From Candidatus Bathyarchaeota archaeon (GTDB lineage: Archaea; Thermoproteota; Bathyarchaeia; Bathyarchaeales; Bathycorpusculaceae): 64,000 nt of DNA. The translations under genes were made by a program, and so were the position numbers. This document shows, one piece after another, positions 31,506 through 38,822 of this stretch; positions within the stretch are counted from its first letter, which is position 1; each line of letters begins with the position of its first letter. Under the pieces are notes generated by a model, which was not told the DNA's origin, did no database searches, and worked only from the letters and a program-made list of their open reading frames with translations. Location: contig OY970280.1 of NCBI GenBank assembly GCA_963715865.1, positions 1,504,001 through 1,568,000 of the forward strand. Reading direction: 5' to 3'.

Positions 31506-33908
31506 TTAGGTTTTCTTGGTTAGCCACAGGTTCTCCTTGTCGAAGGCGAATTCGCTGAACCTTTGAATATAGTAGAGTCTTAGGTATTCGCCTGCAAACT
31601 TTGCTTGGAATGGAAGGTCTTGCGGTGAAAGACGCTTCTTCCTTCTAAGTTGTTCTTTGATGGCGGCTTCCGCAGTTGGATAGTTGAGTAGAAACTCTTT
31701 TCGCTCATTATAAACCGCCAACGTCTGCATTGTCTCATCCACGTAAGACAGGTACTTGGGCAAGTTTTCCATTATTTGGTTAATCGTGCAGTTCGATGGG
31801 TTTGCGAGAGTTTCAGTTGCTTTCTTTAGGCGTTCCCGCAAGGTGGAGTTTTTCTCCCACAAATAATCCTTTGTCGGCAATAAACGCTCAATTGCCTCTT
31901 CCTCGCTAATCAGTTCAGCATACAGCATTGAGAGCACGTCTTTGGAAATCCCGAGGAAAGATTGAATGTCATCTTTCAACGCAATAACATCTACAATGTT
32001 TAGCTGGTCTTTCTCAGCTTTCTTCTCCGTTGCCACTTTCATTGCCTCAGCTTTCTTGGCATGCTCCAGCACTTTGGGCAGGTTTTCACCAAAAATCGGC
32101 GGCAAAACTTCGCTTTCACCACTCAAATTGGCTATTGGCGCCAAGGAGCTTTTAAGATACTTCATCGACGCCAGGATTTCAGCGCCATACTGCTTCTTCC
32201 AATTATTCAATGAACTGTACAATGCTTCTATAGCAATCCATGGTGCCTCTTTTTCCCCTAGCTTTTGCATCGTGAACTCTATCGCTCGGCTTTTCTCTGG
32301 AAGAGTCGGATCATACAAAGGCCTAATAATCCCGTAAATTGGCTCAGCAACAGTAACAACATCCTTGGCAAGAACCCTTCCTCCGTCTAAGACTTGTTTG
32401 ATAGCTTCTATTCTTGCTTCAAGAGGCATTTCTTTTTGGAAACCAGCGTTCACTGTGGATTTGATGTCTAAGCCGCTGTCTTTGAGTTTTCCTACCCAGT
32501 TAGAAAATTCGCAATTAGCAAAAATCTGGTACTCTGACAGTATAATGTTGAGTTCTGATTCTAAACCGTCGATGTCTTTGCTTAACTTTTCTAACTCCTC
32601 AAATTTCTGGTTCAATTCTGACAGTTCATAAAGCCGCATCTCAAACTTTCTCAGCAGGTCTTCAAGCGAGTCTTTGATAACTAACATTTTACCTTCAGGA
32701 GAACTCACAACCACAGGAATATTCTCCTTAACATTATTCAGTTGGCCCTCAAAAACCTGCAACCGACCCATAAGCGCTTGAGCTTTCTCAGTAATCTCTG
32801 AAGTTGTCGCCGTTTGTTTAGGAGTATAATCAATGAAGGCTGCAGGAAGCGTAAATAAAAGCGTAGCCAAAGTACCAAACACCATCGTTGCTGGGCTAAC
32901 ATTTGCGGTAAAAGCTAATCCATATTGAAGAGCCCCAAGCATGATAAAGAAGAACGCTGCGGCACAAGTAGCCATGAAAGATGGAATAATCCTATCGGCA
33001 AACGACTTGCTACCTTCTGGCACCAACAGCCTTGCTAGGAAAACAAGCGCCAGAGAAAGCCCTGCCACAATGACGATAAACATCAGCATGCCAGGAACAG
33101 AATCACGATACTGTGTTAACGCATCCGAAAGGGTGCGCCCAGCGAAATTAGGTTGCCATGTAAGCTGGCCAGTAATTGCATAAACAGCTTGGGACGCGTC
33201 ATACAATCGAAACTGACTCATAGAAGAACCAAGGTCTGCCAAAATCTGGTTCAAAGGCACAAAAACAGGCGGACTTGAACCAGGTGCAAGCCACCAGTCA
33301 GGCCTAGCAATTTTTGCAACTGTATAATTGAAGTACTGAACGATCTGAAGGGGGACCGTAATTAAAACGTAATACACGATGGTTAAGGCAACTTGTTTTT
33401 TAAAGAATACCGCTGAAGCCAAAATCAATGGAATAGCCAAGAAATAGGTTGAAGTAGAGAAGAGACTTGTGACGGCTAACAGGCCTAAATCAATGGCAAG
33501 AGCGCTCTTGTAGCGGTGAAAAACTATGGGTAAAACGATAAACAAAGTCATCCAGACAACAAGTATTGCTATGCGAACCTGTATTTCCCCGAGGAAGGAA
33601 ATAAAGTACAATTCGGCCAAATGATACATCAAGCCTAACCCAATAACAGCGCCACCAATAGGCATCCCAAACCTCGGATCCTTAAAAGTTACAAACGCCA
33701 CTAGAACCGCAAGTAAAATTGGCACGGGTTGAGGAAATAGCGGCAAAAAAGACATCCCTAATGCCATAGCGGCAAGCGTTACAAAAAAAGTGATGATCTT
33801 AAGCGGCGCTGGCTCAGAAATACGCTGTTGCTCTTGTTTTTCCTTGCTTTTCTGCTTCCTTTCCTTATACCATGAGCGTACACCAGAAAAATTAATTGCC
33901 TTCTTCAA
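31506..33908 (-). CDS. Polytopic membrane protein (~9 TM) with ~440-aa C-terminal coiled-coil region
   Basis: 800-aa ORF; hydrophobic N-terminal ~360 aa, then a heptad-rich charged helical region. Confidence 0.8.
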   Translation of the reverse strand: MKKAINFSGVRSWYKERKQKSKEKQEQQRISEPAPLKIITFFVTLAAMALGMSFLPLFPQPVPILLAVLVAFVTFKDPRFGMPIGGAVIGLGLMYHLAELYFISFLGEIQVRIAILVVWMTLFIVLPIVFHRYKSALAIDLGLLAVTSLFSTSTYFLAIPLILASAVFFKKQVALTIVYYVLITVPLQIVQYFNYTVAKIARPDWWLAPGSSPPVFVPLNQILADLGSSMSQFRLYDASQAVYAITGQLTWQPNFAGRTLSDALTQYRDSVPGMLMFIVIVAGLSLALVFLARLLVPEGSKSFADRIIPSFMATCAAAFFFIMLGALQYGLAFTANVSPATMVFGTLATLLFTLPAAFIDYTPKQTATTSEITEKAQALMGRLQVFEGQLNNVKENIPVVVSSPEGKMLVIKDSLEDLLRKFEMRLYELSELNQKFEELEKLSKDIDGLESELNIILSEYQIFANCEFSNWVGKLKDSGLDIKSTVNAGFQKEMPLEARIEAIKQVLDGGRVLAKDVVTVAEPIYGIIRPLYDPTLPEKSRAIEFTMQKLGEKEAPWIAIEALYSSLNNWKKQYGAEILASMKYLKSSLAPIANLSGESEVLPPIFGENLPKVLEHAKKAEAMKVATEKKAEKDQLNIVDVIALKDDIQSFLGISKDVLSMLYAELISEEEAIERLLPTKDYLWEKNSTLRERLKKATETLANPSNCTINQIMENLPKYLSYVDETMQTLAVYNERKEFLLNYPTAEAAIKEQLRRKKRLSPQDLPFQAKFAGEYLRLYYIQRFSEFAFDKENLWLTKKT

Positions 33909-33969
33909 ACGACTTACCTAAAACCTTATTTTGGGTAGAGTCTTCTTAAATGTTACGTAGGTACCTCGG

Positions 33970-35127
33970 ATGAAAGATGGCAAAAGCTCTTTTAACATTC
34001 TGGAAAGCATTAAGAATCACATAGAAACGTTAAAACCATTACTGCCAAAGCAAGCCATAGTTTGCATTGGCGAATACCCCATCAAGATATTTTTAAAAGA
34101 ACCATACGTTAACAAAGTAAACGAAACGTTGCCGATTCTCATTGGAAAATCAAGCGATGATATTTTTAAATGGATACCAAAAGGTTATGACCCATACTTT
34201 ATTTTAGGTTTTGAAGACGCAGACATTGACACTCATTTCTGGTATAACGTGTTACCATTTATTTCAAAGGATGAAACTTTAATCGGAGGCTTAAAGAAAA
34301 AACCCATCGAAAAACTGCACAGCGCCATAATAGTCGCATCAATATGGGATGGAATTGGCAGCGCTTCATTACCAACCTTAATATCGAAATTCAAAGCCTC
34401 AAACATACATTCACTATCCATAGCCATATTGCCCTCAAAAATACAGCCCACAGATGCATACTTCAACACGATTGCATCATTAGGAATGTGTGCGTCCACC
34501 GATGCTACAACAGTTCTGCTCATAGACAGAGACCACCTTGAAAACTATGAAGGCGTCGATAGAAATGGCTCCCTAATAAAAGGCAACATAATCGCAAATT
34601 ACTTAGTGAACCTATTGTTAGCTAAAGAAACGCTTGTTCAAGAAATCTCCGAGCTATCCAGAACATTCAACGTCAAAATGTACACTGTTCTATTAGCCAC
34701 AGGAGCAAGCATCAAAATTTACGGTTCCCTAGAAAACATGCTAAACGCAACATTGCTCAAGCCCCTTTTAGATTTTGATTTATCAAGCGCTTCATTACTC
34801 TATGTTCTTCTACGCATGCCCATAAGCCTAAAGGATAAGCTTCCAAGAGGAAAAATCGAGTTAGCCATAGCAGGCTGGTTTAAGGAAAAAGCTAACCTTA
34901 AATCCATCTACATAACCGAACCCAGCTACGTCGAAGACACAAGTGACCGAATAGACCTAGCCTTATTTGTTGGCGGCTTTGACACTACCAAAATGTTCAA
35001 TGACTTCGATAAGAAAGTTAAAAGTTTGAAAAGTCGCGCAGTTGAAAAAGGTTTCATAAAAGAGGAAGATTGGCAAATCATTATGAAAAATTTGGAAGGA
35101 CAGAAGGAGCAGCAAACTCCTTCCTAA
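33970..35127 (+). CDS. Degenerate FtsZ/tubulin-fold protein (predicted pseudo-GTPase)
   Basis: By-eye match to FtsZ: AIIVASIWDGIGSASLP (T4 region), SIAILPS (T5), LLIDRDHL (T6), DFDLSSASLLYVLL, DRIDLALFVGG (C-terminal domain). Gly-rich loops are eroded. Confidence 0.7.
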   Translation: MKDGKSSFNILESIKNHIETLKPLLPKQAIVCIGEYPIKIFLKEPYVNKVNETLPILIGKSSDDIFKWIPKGYDPYFILGFEDADIDTHFWYNVLPFISKDETLIGGLKKKPIEKLHSAIIVASIWDGIGSASLPTLISKFKASNIHSLSIAILPSKIQPTDAYFNTIASLGMCASTDATTVLLIDRDHLENYEGVDRNGSLIKGNIIANYLVNLLLAKETLVQEISELSRTFNVKMYTVLLATGASIKIYGSLENMLNATLLKPLLDFDLSSASLLYVLLRMPISLKDKLPRGKIELAIAGWFKEKANLKSIYITEPSYVEDTSDRIDLALFVGGFDTTKMFNDFDKKVKSLKSRAVEKGFIKEEDWQIIMKNLEGQKEQQTPS

Positions 35128-35129
35128 GT

Positions 35130-37790
35130 TTACTTTTTGTTTTGATTGCTGTTGCTGTTGTTGTGATTGCTGTTGTGATTTATCTCTTTAATGATTTGTA
35201 CAGCGGACACTCCGTGCTCAATTAGGTAAGATCTGGATAGGTGTCTTTCGAAATCACTAGATTTGCTGTAAAGTAGTTGCATTTCGTCGTAGGCTTCCAT
35301 GTCTTCAGGTCTTCCTCTACCGCCTACAACCAGTAATCTTGTTGTCCATGGGTCACGAGAGTCAATTACACGAACGGTAATTGTTCTTGACACTTCGCTG
35401 GTAACGTAGCCTGCTAATGCAGTGTAGACTTCTTGAGACAATTCTTCTGTCCACAGGTTTGGAGGTGCTTGCACAGTAACCCAAAGGTAATCTGTCCTGT
35501 AAACTGGTTTATAGCCCATAATGCTTGGCGTTTTGAAAATCCTAATTACACTTTTCATGTAATCCTTAAAGTGGTCCATGTCAAGTATATCTTTGAATAT
35601 TACGTCTCTTGTAAGACTCTCTTCCTGTTCAGTGAGTATCTTGAAGATTATCTTAAGTTGTTCGCTTTCAGTGAGGTCAGCTGACTTCACAAAGTATTTC
35701 TTAGGCGCGACAATGTCAGCAATCTTTTCTCTATATTCCCTGTGTAAATCTACGATCTTATTCAGTCTCTTCCGGTAATCAGACGTAAGTTCAAGTCTCT
35801 TTGTTAATTTTTCGTAAAGTTTAATTGCACTGTCAACTTTGCCCAGGTTCTCAAGCGCATAAGATTCTTCTTCCCCTATCCTCCTCAGGTCACGCTCAAG
35901 ATTCAAAAGCTGTTCTCTAGCATACCGTTTTGTGCTGAAAACTTTTCTTAGCTGCATTTCCATTTTTGACTTATCAAATTCTTTTCGTTTCTTTGTCTCT
36001 TGCACTCTCATGACTTCGTTGTCGAAATTGCCCCTTTTCTGCATTCGTTTTGCCAAGATTTCGTTAATGTAGGTTAAATGTTCATCAATCATTCTTGCCT
36101 CGTCGAATGGCGTTCTAAGTATCATCTGAACTACAAGGTAGATTGTTGCCAGTTCTGATTGAATGTCTTTTAAGTCTTCTAGTTCGCGTATGGATTCTGG
36201 AAGCACTTCATAGTACCTTATTAAAGCGTCAGTTAGGTATCTGGTTTCGTCATAGAATTTCAGGATGTTGAGGGATTTTTCAGCGAGCTCTGAAAGATTT
36301 ACTAAATCCTCCAAAATCTTCTTTTGCCTTAAGGTAAAGGCTTGTGAGCTAGGAATCAATTGCTTGAGCCGATCTAAGATAACTGCCTTTCTCTCAGAGA
36401 ATTCTAAATGTGTTTTTGTTAGGTTGGTAAGTAAGGCTTCTATATTATCTACTTTCCTTGAGCCATCTTTGCGCAATGTTAGGTTTATTATGGCGTCTTC
36501 GATTGGCCCTGTTTTTCCCATTAACTTTATGGTTGACAGGAACTTCATGATTTCGCTTAACCAGTTTTTAACCTGTATTTCGATGCCTTTAACATGTAAT
36601 TCTAAGTCATCTTCAAGTCGTGGATTGCTGTTAATGGTTGTCTTAAGTTTTTCCTCGAACTGTTCTTCGTTGAAAGTACCTGTTTTTATAAGGTAATTCT
36701 TGAAAAGGTCCCTTGTTATTTCATAATCCACTTTTATGATGTTGTTGATTTCATCGAGGATGTCTAGTTTTTCTTTTCTCAGTTCCTGTAGAAGTTGAAT
36801 TCCTTCAAAATTCAACTTATAAGCTGAGATGTATTCTTCAACAGGATAGACTACCTTGACCATACCCAATGTGTGCGATGAATTGTTGGTGAGTCCGACT
36901 TCTGTGCCGATTCCTCCTAGAAGGTCTGCCAAGTCAAAGTCCATTAAGGTGTAAAGCATGTCCACAACCATGTCGTCCATTTCTTTTCGGGCATTAACAA
37001 TGTTGCCTACTTTTGAGAAAGCAGGTAATAGCGGCAAGTAGATTAGAGCATTCAAAGGATTTCTATAGTAGTCACCGTAGGATTTTATGACAAATTCATT
37101 GTAATCCTTATTCAACAACAGCGAAAGTTCATTCATCGACACAAATGCGGAGCATCCTTTTGCTGGAGGGTCATCTCCGCCACAAGGAGTTATTACGAAA
37201 GCTATTATTGGTACGCCAGAACCTAACACTTTTCGTAAATGTCTAGCGAAATCAAAGAATATACCGCTTCCAGTGCCACCGCCTAATCCATAAACCAAAA
37301 CCACTGTCGGCGTAATTATTGATGAAAGGGCTTGCTCTTTGAATGAGTTTATGCAGTTTTTGATTATTCCAAGTTGGTAATAGTTTAAGGCGTAGATTGC
37401 TTTTGCTAAGGCTCTTCTTCTGCCTGCGCCGCCAGCCATCGGCGGAATAGCCATTGTCGATTGTAGCCAAGGAATAAAGTTTTCAAGTTTTGCCCCTTCG
37501 CCTACGAGGTATTCGTTGTATTTTTGGTTGATGAAGTCGAACATTGCCTCGGCAGTTGGGAATTTTACTGATTGGGCGATTAGGCGCATTCTTTCGCTTG
37601 GGATACCTGCTTTTATCATCGATTTCTGTATTTGTTCATGGGTTTCCTGTAAACTTCTGATTTCAGGGTCAGCGATATCGATAGCTAAAAGAGAAAGCCT
37701 TGTAAGGTCATTCTGCATCAGCTCCTTAGTTTTTTTGTTTGATAAAAAAGCTTCTACAATGTTAGTTCCAGCTGAACCCAGCCCTATCAC
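35130..37790 (-). CDS. FtsZ/tubulin-superfamily GTPase with large coiled-coil insertion; true start probably 9-11 codons upstream
   Basis: VIGLGSAGTN (T1), GGAGRRR (T3), LGGGTGSG (T4 signature), ITP (T5), MDFDLADL (T7-like), long helical insert, then an FtsZ-like C-terminal domain. Confidence 0.88.
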   Translation of the reverse strand: MIGLGSAGTNIVEAFLSNKKTKELMQNDLTRLSLLAIDIADPEIRSLQETHEQIQKSMIKAGIPSERMRLIAQSVKFPTAEAMFDFINQKYNEYLVGEGAKLENFIPWLQSTMAIPPMAGGAGRRRALAKAIYALNYYQLGIIKNCINSFKEQALSSIITPTVVLVYGLGGGTGSGIFFDFARHLRKVLGSGVPIIAFVITPCGGDDPPAKGCSAFVSMNELSLLLNKDYNEFVIKSYGDYYRNPLNALIYLPLLPAFSKVGNIVNARKEMDDMVVDMLYTLMDFDLADLLGGIGTEVGLTNNSSHTLGMVKVVYPVEEYISAYKLNFEGIQLLQELRKEKLDILDEINNIIKVDYEITRDLFKNYLIKTGTFNEEQFEEKLKTTINSNPRLEDDLELHVKGIEIQVKNWLSEIMKFLSTIKLMGKTGPIEDAIINLTLRKDGSRKVDNIEALLTNLTKTHLEFSERKAVILDRLKQLIPSSQAFTLRQKKILEDLVNLSELAEKSLNILKFYDETRYLTDALIRYYEVLPESIRELEDLKDIQSELATIYLVVQMILRTPFDEARMIDEHLTYINEILAKRMQKRGNFDNEVMRVQETKKRKEFDKSKMEMQLRKVFSTKRYAREQLLNLERDLRRIGEEESYALENLGKVDSAIKLYEKLTKRLELTSDYRKRLNKIVDLHREYREKIADIVAPKKYFVKSADLTESEQLKIIFKILTEQEESLTRDVIFKDILDMDHFKDYMKSVIRIFKTPSIMGYKPVYRTDYLWVTVQAPPNLWTEELSQEVYTALAGYVTSEVSRTITVRVIDSRDPWTTRLLVVGGRGRPEDMEAYDEMQLLYSKSSDFERHLSRSYLIEHGVSAVQIIKEINHNSNHNNSNSNQNKK

Positions 37791-37823: not shown

Positions 37824-38822
37824 TCACATCCCAACTAGTCTTTTCAATCTGTCCTTAACTGACTCCAAACTTGACGACATTGTTCTGTCGATTTTTGAAG
37901 CTCGCAACGTTAAGCCTTCCAAGTCCTTGATTTGGTCTTCAACGACAAGTTGGAAGTAGCTTACTTTCCCTCTCACCCTCAGGAACATGACTACGAATAC
38001 AACTGCTACAACGGCTAAGACACCGATTATCGGGATGAAGAGCGATTGCATTGTTGAAGACGCAGGCTCGTTGGAAACGTTGAGACCATTAAGCATAGCT
38101 ATAGCATCGGTGACATCCCCAGCGTTAGCTACAACCTTTGATTGGTTGAGAACATTAGTGTAGATGTCAATGTATCCTTGGACAACTCCCGATGACTCAA
38201 GGGATTTCAGGTGGGTCTCCTTCTGGCTATAAAGTGTCAGGAACTGACTCATCGCCGCAGTGGTTGATGACACGGTAATTTGGTCAAGAGGCACCCCGCC
38301 CGATGGACCATACAAGGTCACGACATTAACTGGCGCCTGTGCTTCTGTAGCAGAGGGAGTTGGAACTACGCCAATGACAGTCATAGTAAAGGTTCCTTGA
38401 ACCCAATTGAAGGATGCTGTTTTTGCGCCTGCTGAGAAATCTGAGCCTAGCGTATAATTGCTTGAAGTGTCTAGTGACCAGTATTGACCTTGAAGCAGTT
38501 GTCCCAAGCTGGTTGAAAGCTTAAGGTCGCCAGAGCCAGCAGCGATAACGTTGACTGTGAATGTCACCTTAATGTCTGCTCCAGGCAGTATCGTCGCTAA
38601 TGTTTGATTCACGCCTGTGGCTGAATTGTATTCAGCATAATGCTGGTTGGAATTATAATCGTAAATATCGTAGCTTGTAATCCATTGGCCTTCGCCAACG
38701 GCTTTAACAGATGATGTTAAAACGGAAGTTACACAGACAATTGTTAACATTAGAAGGAGACTTAAAGCTAGAATTTTCTTGTTCAATTTTGTTCCCTCAT
38801 AATTTTTTATTGCATGATACAT
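37824..38822 (-). CDS. Secreted, single-pass membrane-anchored protein with short cytoplasmic helical tail
   Basis: N-terminal signal peptide, beta-rich S/T extracellular domain, TM helix LFIPIIGVLAVVAVVFVVMFL, ~50-aa charged tail. Confidence 0.8.
   Translation of the reverse strand: MYHAIKNYEGTKLNKKILALSLLLMLTIVCVTSVLTSSVKAVGEGQWITSYDIYDYNSNQHYAEYNSATGVNQTLATILPGADIKVTFTVNVIAAGSGDLKLSTSLGQLLQGQYWSLDTSSNYTLGSDFSAGAKTASFNWVQGTFTMTVIGVVPTPSATEAQAPVNVVTLYGPSGGVPLDQITVSSTTAAMSQFLTLYSQKETHLKSLESSGVVQGYIDIYTNVLNQSKVVANAGDVTDAIAMLNGLNVSNEPASSTMQSLFIPIIGVLAVVAVVFVVMFLRVRGKVSYFQLVVEDQIKDLEGLTLRASKIDRTMSSSLESVKDRLKRLVGM

Follow-up and report, generated by a model that had tools for sequence, protein, structure and literature searches.

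P0001 is a 385-aa protein encoded in a 64,000-nucleotide stretch of the genome of a Candidatus Bathyarchaeota archaeon (assembly GCA_963715865.1, contig OY970280.1, positions 1,504,001 to 1,568,000, forward strand; henceforth "the window"). In our view, it is probably a short tubulin-fold subunit without catalytic activity, and belongs to a conserved module of four genes centered on P0002, a GTPase of the FtsZl1 type (the Tubulin_2 family of Pfam). The module is asymmetric, with P0002 displaying the full set of GTPase motifs and P0001 lacking them. The only other tubulin-superfamily gene in this genome, a single 2.35-Mb contig that is 97.9% complete, is a canonical FtsZ at 710 kb. P0001 had been described earlier from the DNA letters alone as a cryptic FtsZ-fold pseudo-GTPase (the original prediction). 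The open reading frame that we recover coincides exactly with the one described there, and the motifs quoted for it (CIGEYP, SIWDGIGSA and, from residue 268, DFDLSSAS...) are all present.

At the level of single sequences, P0001 is nearly silent. Public sources label it a "hypothetical protein", as had been anticipated, and every one of its 839 homologues at E<=1e-3 is likewise unnamed or "hypothetical". NCBIfam has no family for it, PF13809 (Tubulin_2) does not match it, and Pfam Tubulin (PF00091) covers residues 114-191 with 19.8 bits (E 0.001), short of the curated cut-off of 33 bits. A phmmer search of the Protein Data Bank (PDB) with the lone sequence returned CetZ (3zid) as its sole match at E 0.2, and the profile of the P0001 clade aligned by hhalign with the genome's own FtsZ only across T4-S6 (E 0.022). 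Given so faint a signal, "cryptic" seems a fair term as far as sequence goes. Profiles reach considerably deeper. The clade profile alone recovers AtubB2 and CetZ from the PDB at about 2e-5, and an alignment of the clade with its distant relatives (A1) recovers CetZ2, CetZ1, the Asgard protein AtubB2 and FtsZ at E 4e-12 to 2e-10. Several of the distant relatives (420-460 aa, 22-31% identical, E 1e-14 to 1e-19) exceed the Pfam Tubulin cut-off (39.9-44.7 bits for P0182, P0193 and P0194), and they thereby link P0001 to the superfamily by sequence. The P0001-family profile also matches that of P0002 with 95.6% probability (E 1e-8).

An AlphaFold2 model of P0001 computed on A1 (pLDDT 86.9, pTM 0.87) displays the two-domain organization of the superfamily, namely a Rossmann-like nucleotide-binding domain, the core helix H7 and a C-terminal domain. 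Foldseek searches with this model returned at least 500 chains, all of them from FtsZ, TubZ, CetZ or tubulin, with E down to 3e-14. The best whole-chain structural matches are CetZ and archaeal tubulins (4b46, 4b45, 3zid) and the Asgard tubulins (OdinTubulin, 7eve; AtubA/B, 9f6t and 9f6v), which are also the best sequence-profile matches and share with P0001 two C-terminal helices. As these helices (340-359 and 365-376) are long in the model and tubulins head the Z ranking, the predicted fold resembles tubulin and CetZ more closely than FtsZ proper. FtsZ sensu stricto has a C-terminal domain without H11-H12, and P0001 neither has this form nor lies closest to FtsZ. On the strength of the model, P0001 has a complete tubulin/CetZ-like fold and is a genuine member of the superfamily. 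Hence, the proposed "FtsZ fold" stands at the level of the superfamily but has to give way to tubulins and CetZ where the closest structures are concerned; structure prediction, for which a non-tubulin fold had been named as the refuting outcome, yielded a tubulin-superfamily fold. CetZ and the archaeal and Asgard tubulins, with 10-16% identity to P0001, retain a GGGTGSG-type T4 and a catalytic T7 and bind GTP. Moreover, P0001 does not cluster with the CetZ-like proteins in the tree described below and does not have the intact GTPase motifs of that family.

The nucleotide-contact loops (Table 1) were compared across 28 members of the P0001 clade with 23-71% identity (alignment A3, the source of all counts out of 28). 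At T1, the middle glycine is the only conserved one of the canonical motif (G34, 27/28), and position 36, where a further glycine is expected, holds Y in 24 members and F in two more; the more distant relatives, which carry a zinc ribbon, have GxGxxG here. At T4, hhalign places the segment WDGIGSA opposite GGGTGTG of the genome's own FtsZ, and the clade consensus is x-(D/E)-G-x-x-S-(G/A) in place of GGGTG(S/T)G, with D/E127 and G128 each kept in 27/28 and G or A at position 132 in 28/28. Across S5-T5-H5, P155 (27/28) and N166 (28/28, invariant) are retained, while position 159 within T5 is Q or H in 24/28 as against mostly E or D in the zinc-ribbon relatives. No NxDxxD motif of the T7 type is found in P0001, either in its sequence or in its alignments with relatives and with P0002. 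Its H7-H8 loop has a 7-residue gap relative to the zinc-ribbon relatives and is flanked in the model by helices 207-216 and 222-232 (assigned by DSSP); in the profile-profile alignment, the invariant DFDxxD of P0002 falls opposite this loop and gap. Near it, K219 is kept in 25/28, and position 225, where the following helix makes its first turn, is acidic (E or D) in 24/28. Residue 225 is a candidate, if an uncertain one, for the counterpart of the catalytic Asp/Glu (D212 of FtsZ, E254 of alpha-tubulin). Thus, the degenerate T1 and T4 of the original prediction are borne out by alignment; for its missing T7 acidic motif, the absence of NxDxxD is in agreement, with the conserved E/D225 as a rider.

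The clade has 5 invariant and 15 near-invariant columns, and the residues that replace the canonical ones are themselves conserved across it; hence, the loops look repurposed under purifying selection (G-x-Y, (D/E)-G, Q/H) rather than decayed. The loss of the canonical GTPase motifs, together with a faster evolution than that of the neighboring P0002 over the same loci (28-72% versus 46-79% identity), could also be read as the mark of a decaying relic of a tubulin gene without present function. This is hardly credible in the face of a frame that is full-length and uninterrupted in 28 of 32 strong matches (in-frame stops occur in three, and contig ends truncate some) and of constant length, the 839 homologues, the conserved columns, the confident fold and the fixed synteny. 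A more substantial alternative is that P0001 is an active, self-assembling tubulin-like protein with a non-canonical pocket, in which it still accommodates a nucleotide or some other phosphate-bearing ligand. The strong conservation, without drift, of G34, Y36, D/E127-G128, S131 and N166 is what one would expect of a re-tuned site, and D-G is likewise found at T4 of AtubB2, the structure of which comes from a complex prepared with GTP. We nevertheless regard such a pocket as quite improbable, as the changes affect four nucleotide-contact elements at once (the T1 glycines, the first Gly and the Thr of T4, the Glu of T5 and the T7 motif), the phosphate loop now contains an acidic side chain, and the independent loss of the GTP signature in related branches (see below) suggests that the subunit can do without it.

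A non-catalytic subunit of P0002 is further favored by the genomic context. In 17 regions of 20 kb, each surrounding a P0001-clade gene of some other Bathyarchaeia genome, the gene order is identical throughout (17/17), with the short gene always on the strand opposite to the other three. An orthologue of P0003, a membrane protein, is adjacent to it in all 17, and one of the surface-anchored 332-aa protein that makes up the fourth component is found in 16, the remaining contig ending before that position. The lowest identities to the window proteins over these loci are 28% for P0001, 45% for P0002, 28% for P0003 and 26% for the 332-aa protein. Among 201 sampled genomes of the class, a strong P0001-clade match is found in 32, a P0002-type match in 36 and both in 31; the single P0001-only case lies on a 2.7-kb contig of a 75%-complete genome. 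This strict synteny and co-occurrence supports the functional association with the neighboring 886-aa GTPase that had been suggested from the window alone. In the window, P0001 and P0002 are convergent with stop codons 2 bp apart, and P0001 and P0003 are divergent; an AT-rich TTAAAT about 20 nt upstream of the P0001 ATG is a possible archaeal TATA element. P0002 is recognized by both Tubulin_2 (E 2.6e-15) and Tubulin (33.7 bits), and its T4 (GxGGGTGSG) and DFDxxD are invariant in 15 orthologues. Neither P0003 nor the 332-aa protein matches any Pfam family.

Table 1. Position of P0001, its nucleotide-contact loop equivalents and the other elements of the module in the window
Feature	Position	Strand	Basis
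P0001 gene, degenerate tubulin-fold protein, 385 aa	33970..35127	+	ORF, ATG start
P0001 T1-loop equivalent, residues 32-37, CIGEYP (canonical GxGxxG)	34063..34080	+	clade alignment
P0001 T4-loop equivalent, residues 124-132, SIWDGIGSA (canonical GGGTGSG)	34339..34365	+	hhalign, clade alignment
P0001 S5-T5-H5 segment, residues 154-166, LPSKIQPTDAYFN	34429..34467	+	clade alignment
P0001 shortened H7-H8 (T7) region, residues 217-225, LAKETLVQE	34618..34644	+	DSSP, alignments
P0002, 886-aa FtsZl1-type tubulin-like GTPase, long helical stalk	35130..37790	-	Pfam Tubulin_2, Tubulin
P0003, 800-aa polytopic membrane protein, long helical cytoplasmic part	31506..33908	-	sequence
Divergent intergenic region P0001/P0003, 61 bp	33909..33969		sequence
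332-aa protein, N-terminal signal/TM (transmembrane) segment and C-terminal TM anchor, first module gene	37824..38822	-	sequence

The family to which P0001 belongs extends well beyond its own clade. An exhaustive search of 1.8 billion representative sequences recovered 115 relatives of P0001. The distant ones have an N-terminal zinc ribbon (C-x2-3-H...C-x2-C) and, in addition to GxGxxG at T1, mostly GGGTGSG at T4; they share with P0001 several motifs specific to the family (LPS..E...FNAY, IYGS..NIL and SDRID...GG), and the named examples are each a "hypothetical protein" from metagenome-assembled genomes (MAGs) of Nitrososphaerales and Thaumarchaeota. In a maximum-likelihood tree, the outgroups of which were CetZ-like Bathyarchaeia proteins and FtsZ, with haloarchaeal CetZ references outside its sampling, the P0001 family separates from both outgroups with a support of 100 and resolves into three lineages. 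Two of these bear the zinc ribbon; the third, which is devoid of it, holds P0001 (support 98). Nested in one of the zinc-ribbon lineages is a thaumarchaeal subclade (support 100) that has lost GGGTGSG, with LGENITSG, IGETLVSG or LSEGIVAG at T4 instead, and the tree places this subclade apart from the ribbon-less P0001 clade. A further short form occurs in the module of two Bathyarchaeia genomes, G135 and G112, the module genes of which all lie on one strand. This 346-aa partner (L066:5044-6084:-, L068:4950-5990:-) retains an N-terminal CxxC...CxxC zinc ribbon, has no recognizable T1 or T4, and is reached by the family profiles only at E about 6e-7. As the degenerate thaumarchaeal subclade and the P0001 clade are separate in the tree, the GTP signature was lost at least twice in the family, and probably three times if the 346-aa form is counted. 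Taken together, these proteins constitute a distinct, undescribed family of more than 800 unannotated sequences that the domain databases miss. In full-text literature searches, we came across no account of FtsZl1 having a short tubulin-fold partner, of tubulins with a zinc ribbon as a family, or of the putative pseudo-GTPase itself.

Some members of the P0001 clade, among them P0124 (L037:9386-10603:-) and P0125-P0130, are elaborated at their termini. In some, the N-terminal helix is duplicated (HHFDV...KHIDQL occurs twice); others have low-complexity N-terminal extensions, which reach about 290 aa, or a C-terminal tail that is long and basic. Pfam matches none of these additions. A separate set of about 455-aa proteins from other Bathyarchaeia families (L052-L064, for example L055:9743-11110:+), which have GLGHCGGK... 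and GEGGGTGSG motifs and score 86.8 bits with Pfam Tubulin, was considered as zinc-ribbon paralogues and rejected: they form a distinct CetZ-like family, their genes adjoin no module gene, and some genomes (G192, G147) hold both such a gene and the P0001 module.

The zinc-ribbon relatives of Nitrososphaerales and other MAGs are found in the same kind of module. Here, a Tubulin_2 protein (857-900 aa) is accompanied by one or two small genes and by a protein of 771-817 aa that Pfam does not match (polytopic membrane character was checked for the 771-aa one only). These modules also contain an additional gene coding for about 325-357 aa (L004:3220-4293:+, or P0239, at the upper end; others 325-355 aa). 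P0239 has no Pfam match, no similarity to any of the four module proteins of the window and no counterpart there; for this lack of similarity, we rejected the 357-aa gene as the equivalent of P0001 or of the 332-aa protein. On the contig of P0193, a GrpE-HSP70-DnaJ operon lies directly upstream of the zinc-ribbon module. Bacterial systems are reported to couple tubulins with HSP70 (Kaur et al. 2020, PMC7159879); the adjacency seen here may be a coincidence with the housekeeping dnaK operon.

Two observations concern P0002 itself. A lone P0002-type gene coding for 960 aa (G011:C6:72446-75076; L067:8408-11290:+) has no recognizable genes for the short partner or the membrane proteins nearby. In the window, the 5' end of the P0002 gene (37787-37836, minus strand) looks shifted relative to its orthologues. 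Three of 15 (L039, L042 and L043) start with M-G-C-(E/P)... and most others with MSELGYSS..., and the first strand reads ...YQNSV(Q/M)-LIGLGS in L039 and L037. A TTG at 37834 of the window opens M-G-C-D-N... in one frame, which reaches a stop at 37787. The frame with FYQNSVQ-VIGLGS is not open before the TGA that ends the upstream gene (37826-37824), and the GTG at 37790 is the first ATG, GTG or TTG within it. The discrepancy could stem from a 1-nt frameshift, from an assembly error or from an unusual start.

As for mechanism, we propose that P0001, which judging from its motifs would neither bind nor hydrolyze GTP in the canonical way, acts through protein contacts, most likely a longitudinal or lateral contact of the tubulin type with P0002. 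It could thereby serve as a capping, nucleating, spacing or regulatory subunit of P0002, with the two membrane proteins as putative anchors of the assembly in the envelope. Both the loss of GTP use and the contact with P0002 are inferred in this proposal. Several observations weigh against it. AtubB2 reads SIGDGTGAG at T4, with Asp at the second Gly, in a solved Asgard tubulin; hence, the Asp at T4 is by itself not decisive for lost binding, and the case for a pseudo-GTPase is made by the combination of changes. The P0001 gene runs in the direction opposite to that of its three module partners and hence does not share a transcript with P0002. The distribution of the module is patchy (6 of 12 genomes of the same genus, the source genome included, and 32 of 201 in the class), as one might expect of an accessory system no less than of a housekeeping cytoskeleton. 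Finally, the contact faces of P0002 are unreadable from its full-length AlphaFold2 model (15 close orthologues; mean pLDDT 59.9), in which the stalk (about residues 317-694) is confident and the globular parts have pLDDT below 50. By DSSP, this low-confidence model has after the stalk the same beta-alpha-beta-beta-alpha order as the C-terminal domain of P0001. A predicted complex of P0001 with residues 1-335/745-886 of P0002 and GTP scored 0.05 against a mark of 0.32, and we do not use it as evidence for or against contact.

The patchiness, which is seen even inside the genus, and the conserved divergent pairing of P0001 with P0003 across a spacer of 22-61 bp raise another possibility, namely that P0001 is an adaptor on the cytoplasmic coiled coil of P0003 and makes no contact with P0002, the module being an accessory envelope or conflict-type system rather than a cytoskeleton. 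There is a bacterial parallel: neighborhoods with coiled-coil tubulins, some with two tubulins, have been reinterpreted as NTP-dependent conflict systems (Kaur et al. 2020, PMC7159879). However, the hallmark partners of conflict systems (vWA, GAP1 GTPase and effector domains) are absent from the module in the window and PADLOC matches none of its proteins. Tubulin-fold proteins, moreover, characteristically contact one another, and P0001 and P0002 are homologues at the profile level. We therefore judge the adaptor role unlikely and prefer a P0001 that works directly on P0002.

Among known systems, P0002 resembles FtsZl1 both in architecture, with a long coiled coil between an N-terminal tubulin-like domain and a C-terminal domain, and in its membrane-protein neighborhood. 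The operons of FtsZl1 were reported to hold membrane proteins, with vWA proteins, kinases, P-loop GTPases and OmpA as partners (Makarova and Koonin 2010, PMC2875224); that account mentions no second short tubulin-fold gene, and the partners named in it are absent from the present module. P0001 itself differs from FtsZl1 in having neither a stalk (as judged from its model) nor a Tubulin_2 match nor a GTP signature, and is related to P0002 at the profile level. The GAP1-N2 GTPase-centric systems of Firmicutes, which hold two tubulins together with coiled coils and membrane proteins (PMC7159879), differ in turn in being bacterial, in having coiled coils in both tubulins and in containing vWA and GAP1 GTPase components, none of which occurs in the P0001 module. 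The nearest functional analogy is provided by alpha/beta-tubulin, BtubA/B and AtubA/B, in which two paralogous tubulin-fold proteins divide the labor and one nucleotide site of the pair is non-hydrolytic (PMC13394414). In these heterodimers, both subunits bind GTP and inactivation is via a Lys in the T7 of the partner, whereas P0001 appears to have lost the binding loops themselves.

Degenerate tubulin-superfamily proteins are not without precedent in TACK archaea: Nmar_1262, an FtsZ homologue of Nitrosopumilus maritimus, has AGKAGSA at T4 and no T7 loop, and does not polymerize in yeast even with GGGTGTG restored (Ng et al. 2013, PMC3684127). Its AGKAGSA is absent from all relatives of P0001 that we retrieved, and the marine thaumarchaeal members of the P0001 family have IGETLVSG at T4 and a zinc ribbon; there is accordingly no indication that Nmar_1262 is a family member, and we keep it only as an analogy.

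FtsZl1/Tubulin_2 proteins have been functionally blank since 2010, and a 2023 survey set them aside as too divergent (PMC9871819). What is new here is that the FtsZl1 proteins of TACK archaea come with a dedicated second tubulin-fold protein, in which the GTP signature has been lost independently several times. Very tentatively, and with the odds against it, we envisage in these archaea (Bathyarchaeia, Nitrososphaerales and relatives) a two-tubulin, membrane-anchored machine for filament formation or remodeling, in which the FtsZl1-type GTPase and the short subunit form an obligate hetero-assembly and the nucleotide site of the short subunit has been abandoned repeatedly. If true, this would be an independent and more extreme version of the division of labor between catalytic and structural subunits seen in alpha/beta-tubulin. 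P0001 and P0002 offer a concrete two-component system for asking how FtsZl1 proteins assemble, and P0001 may represent a natural case of a pseudo-GTPase within the tubulin superfamily.
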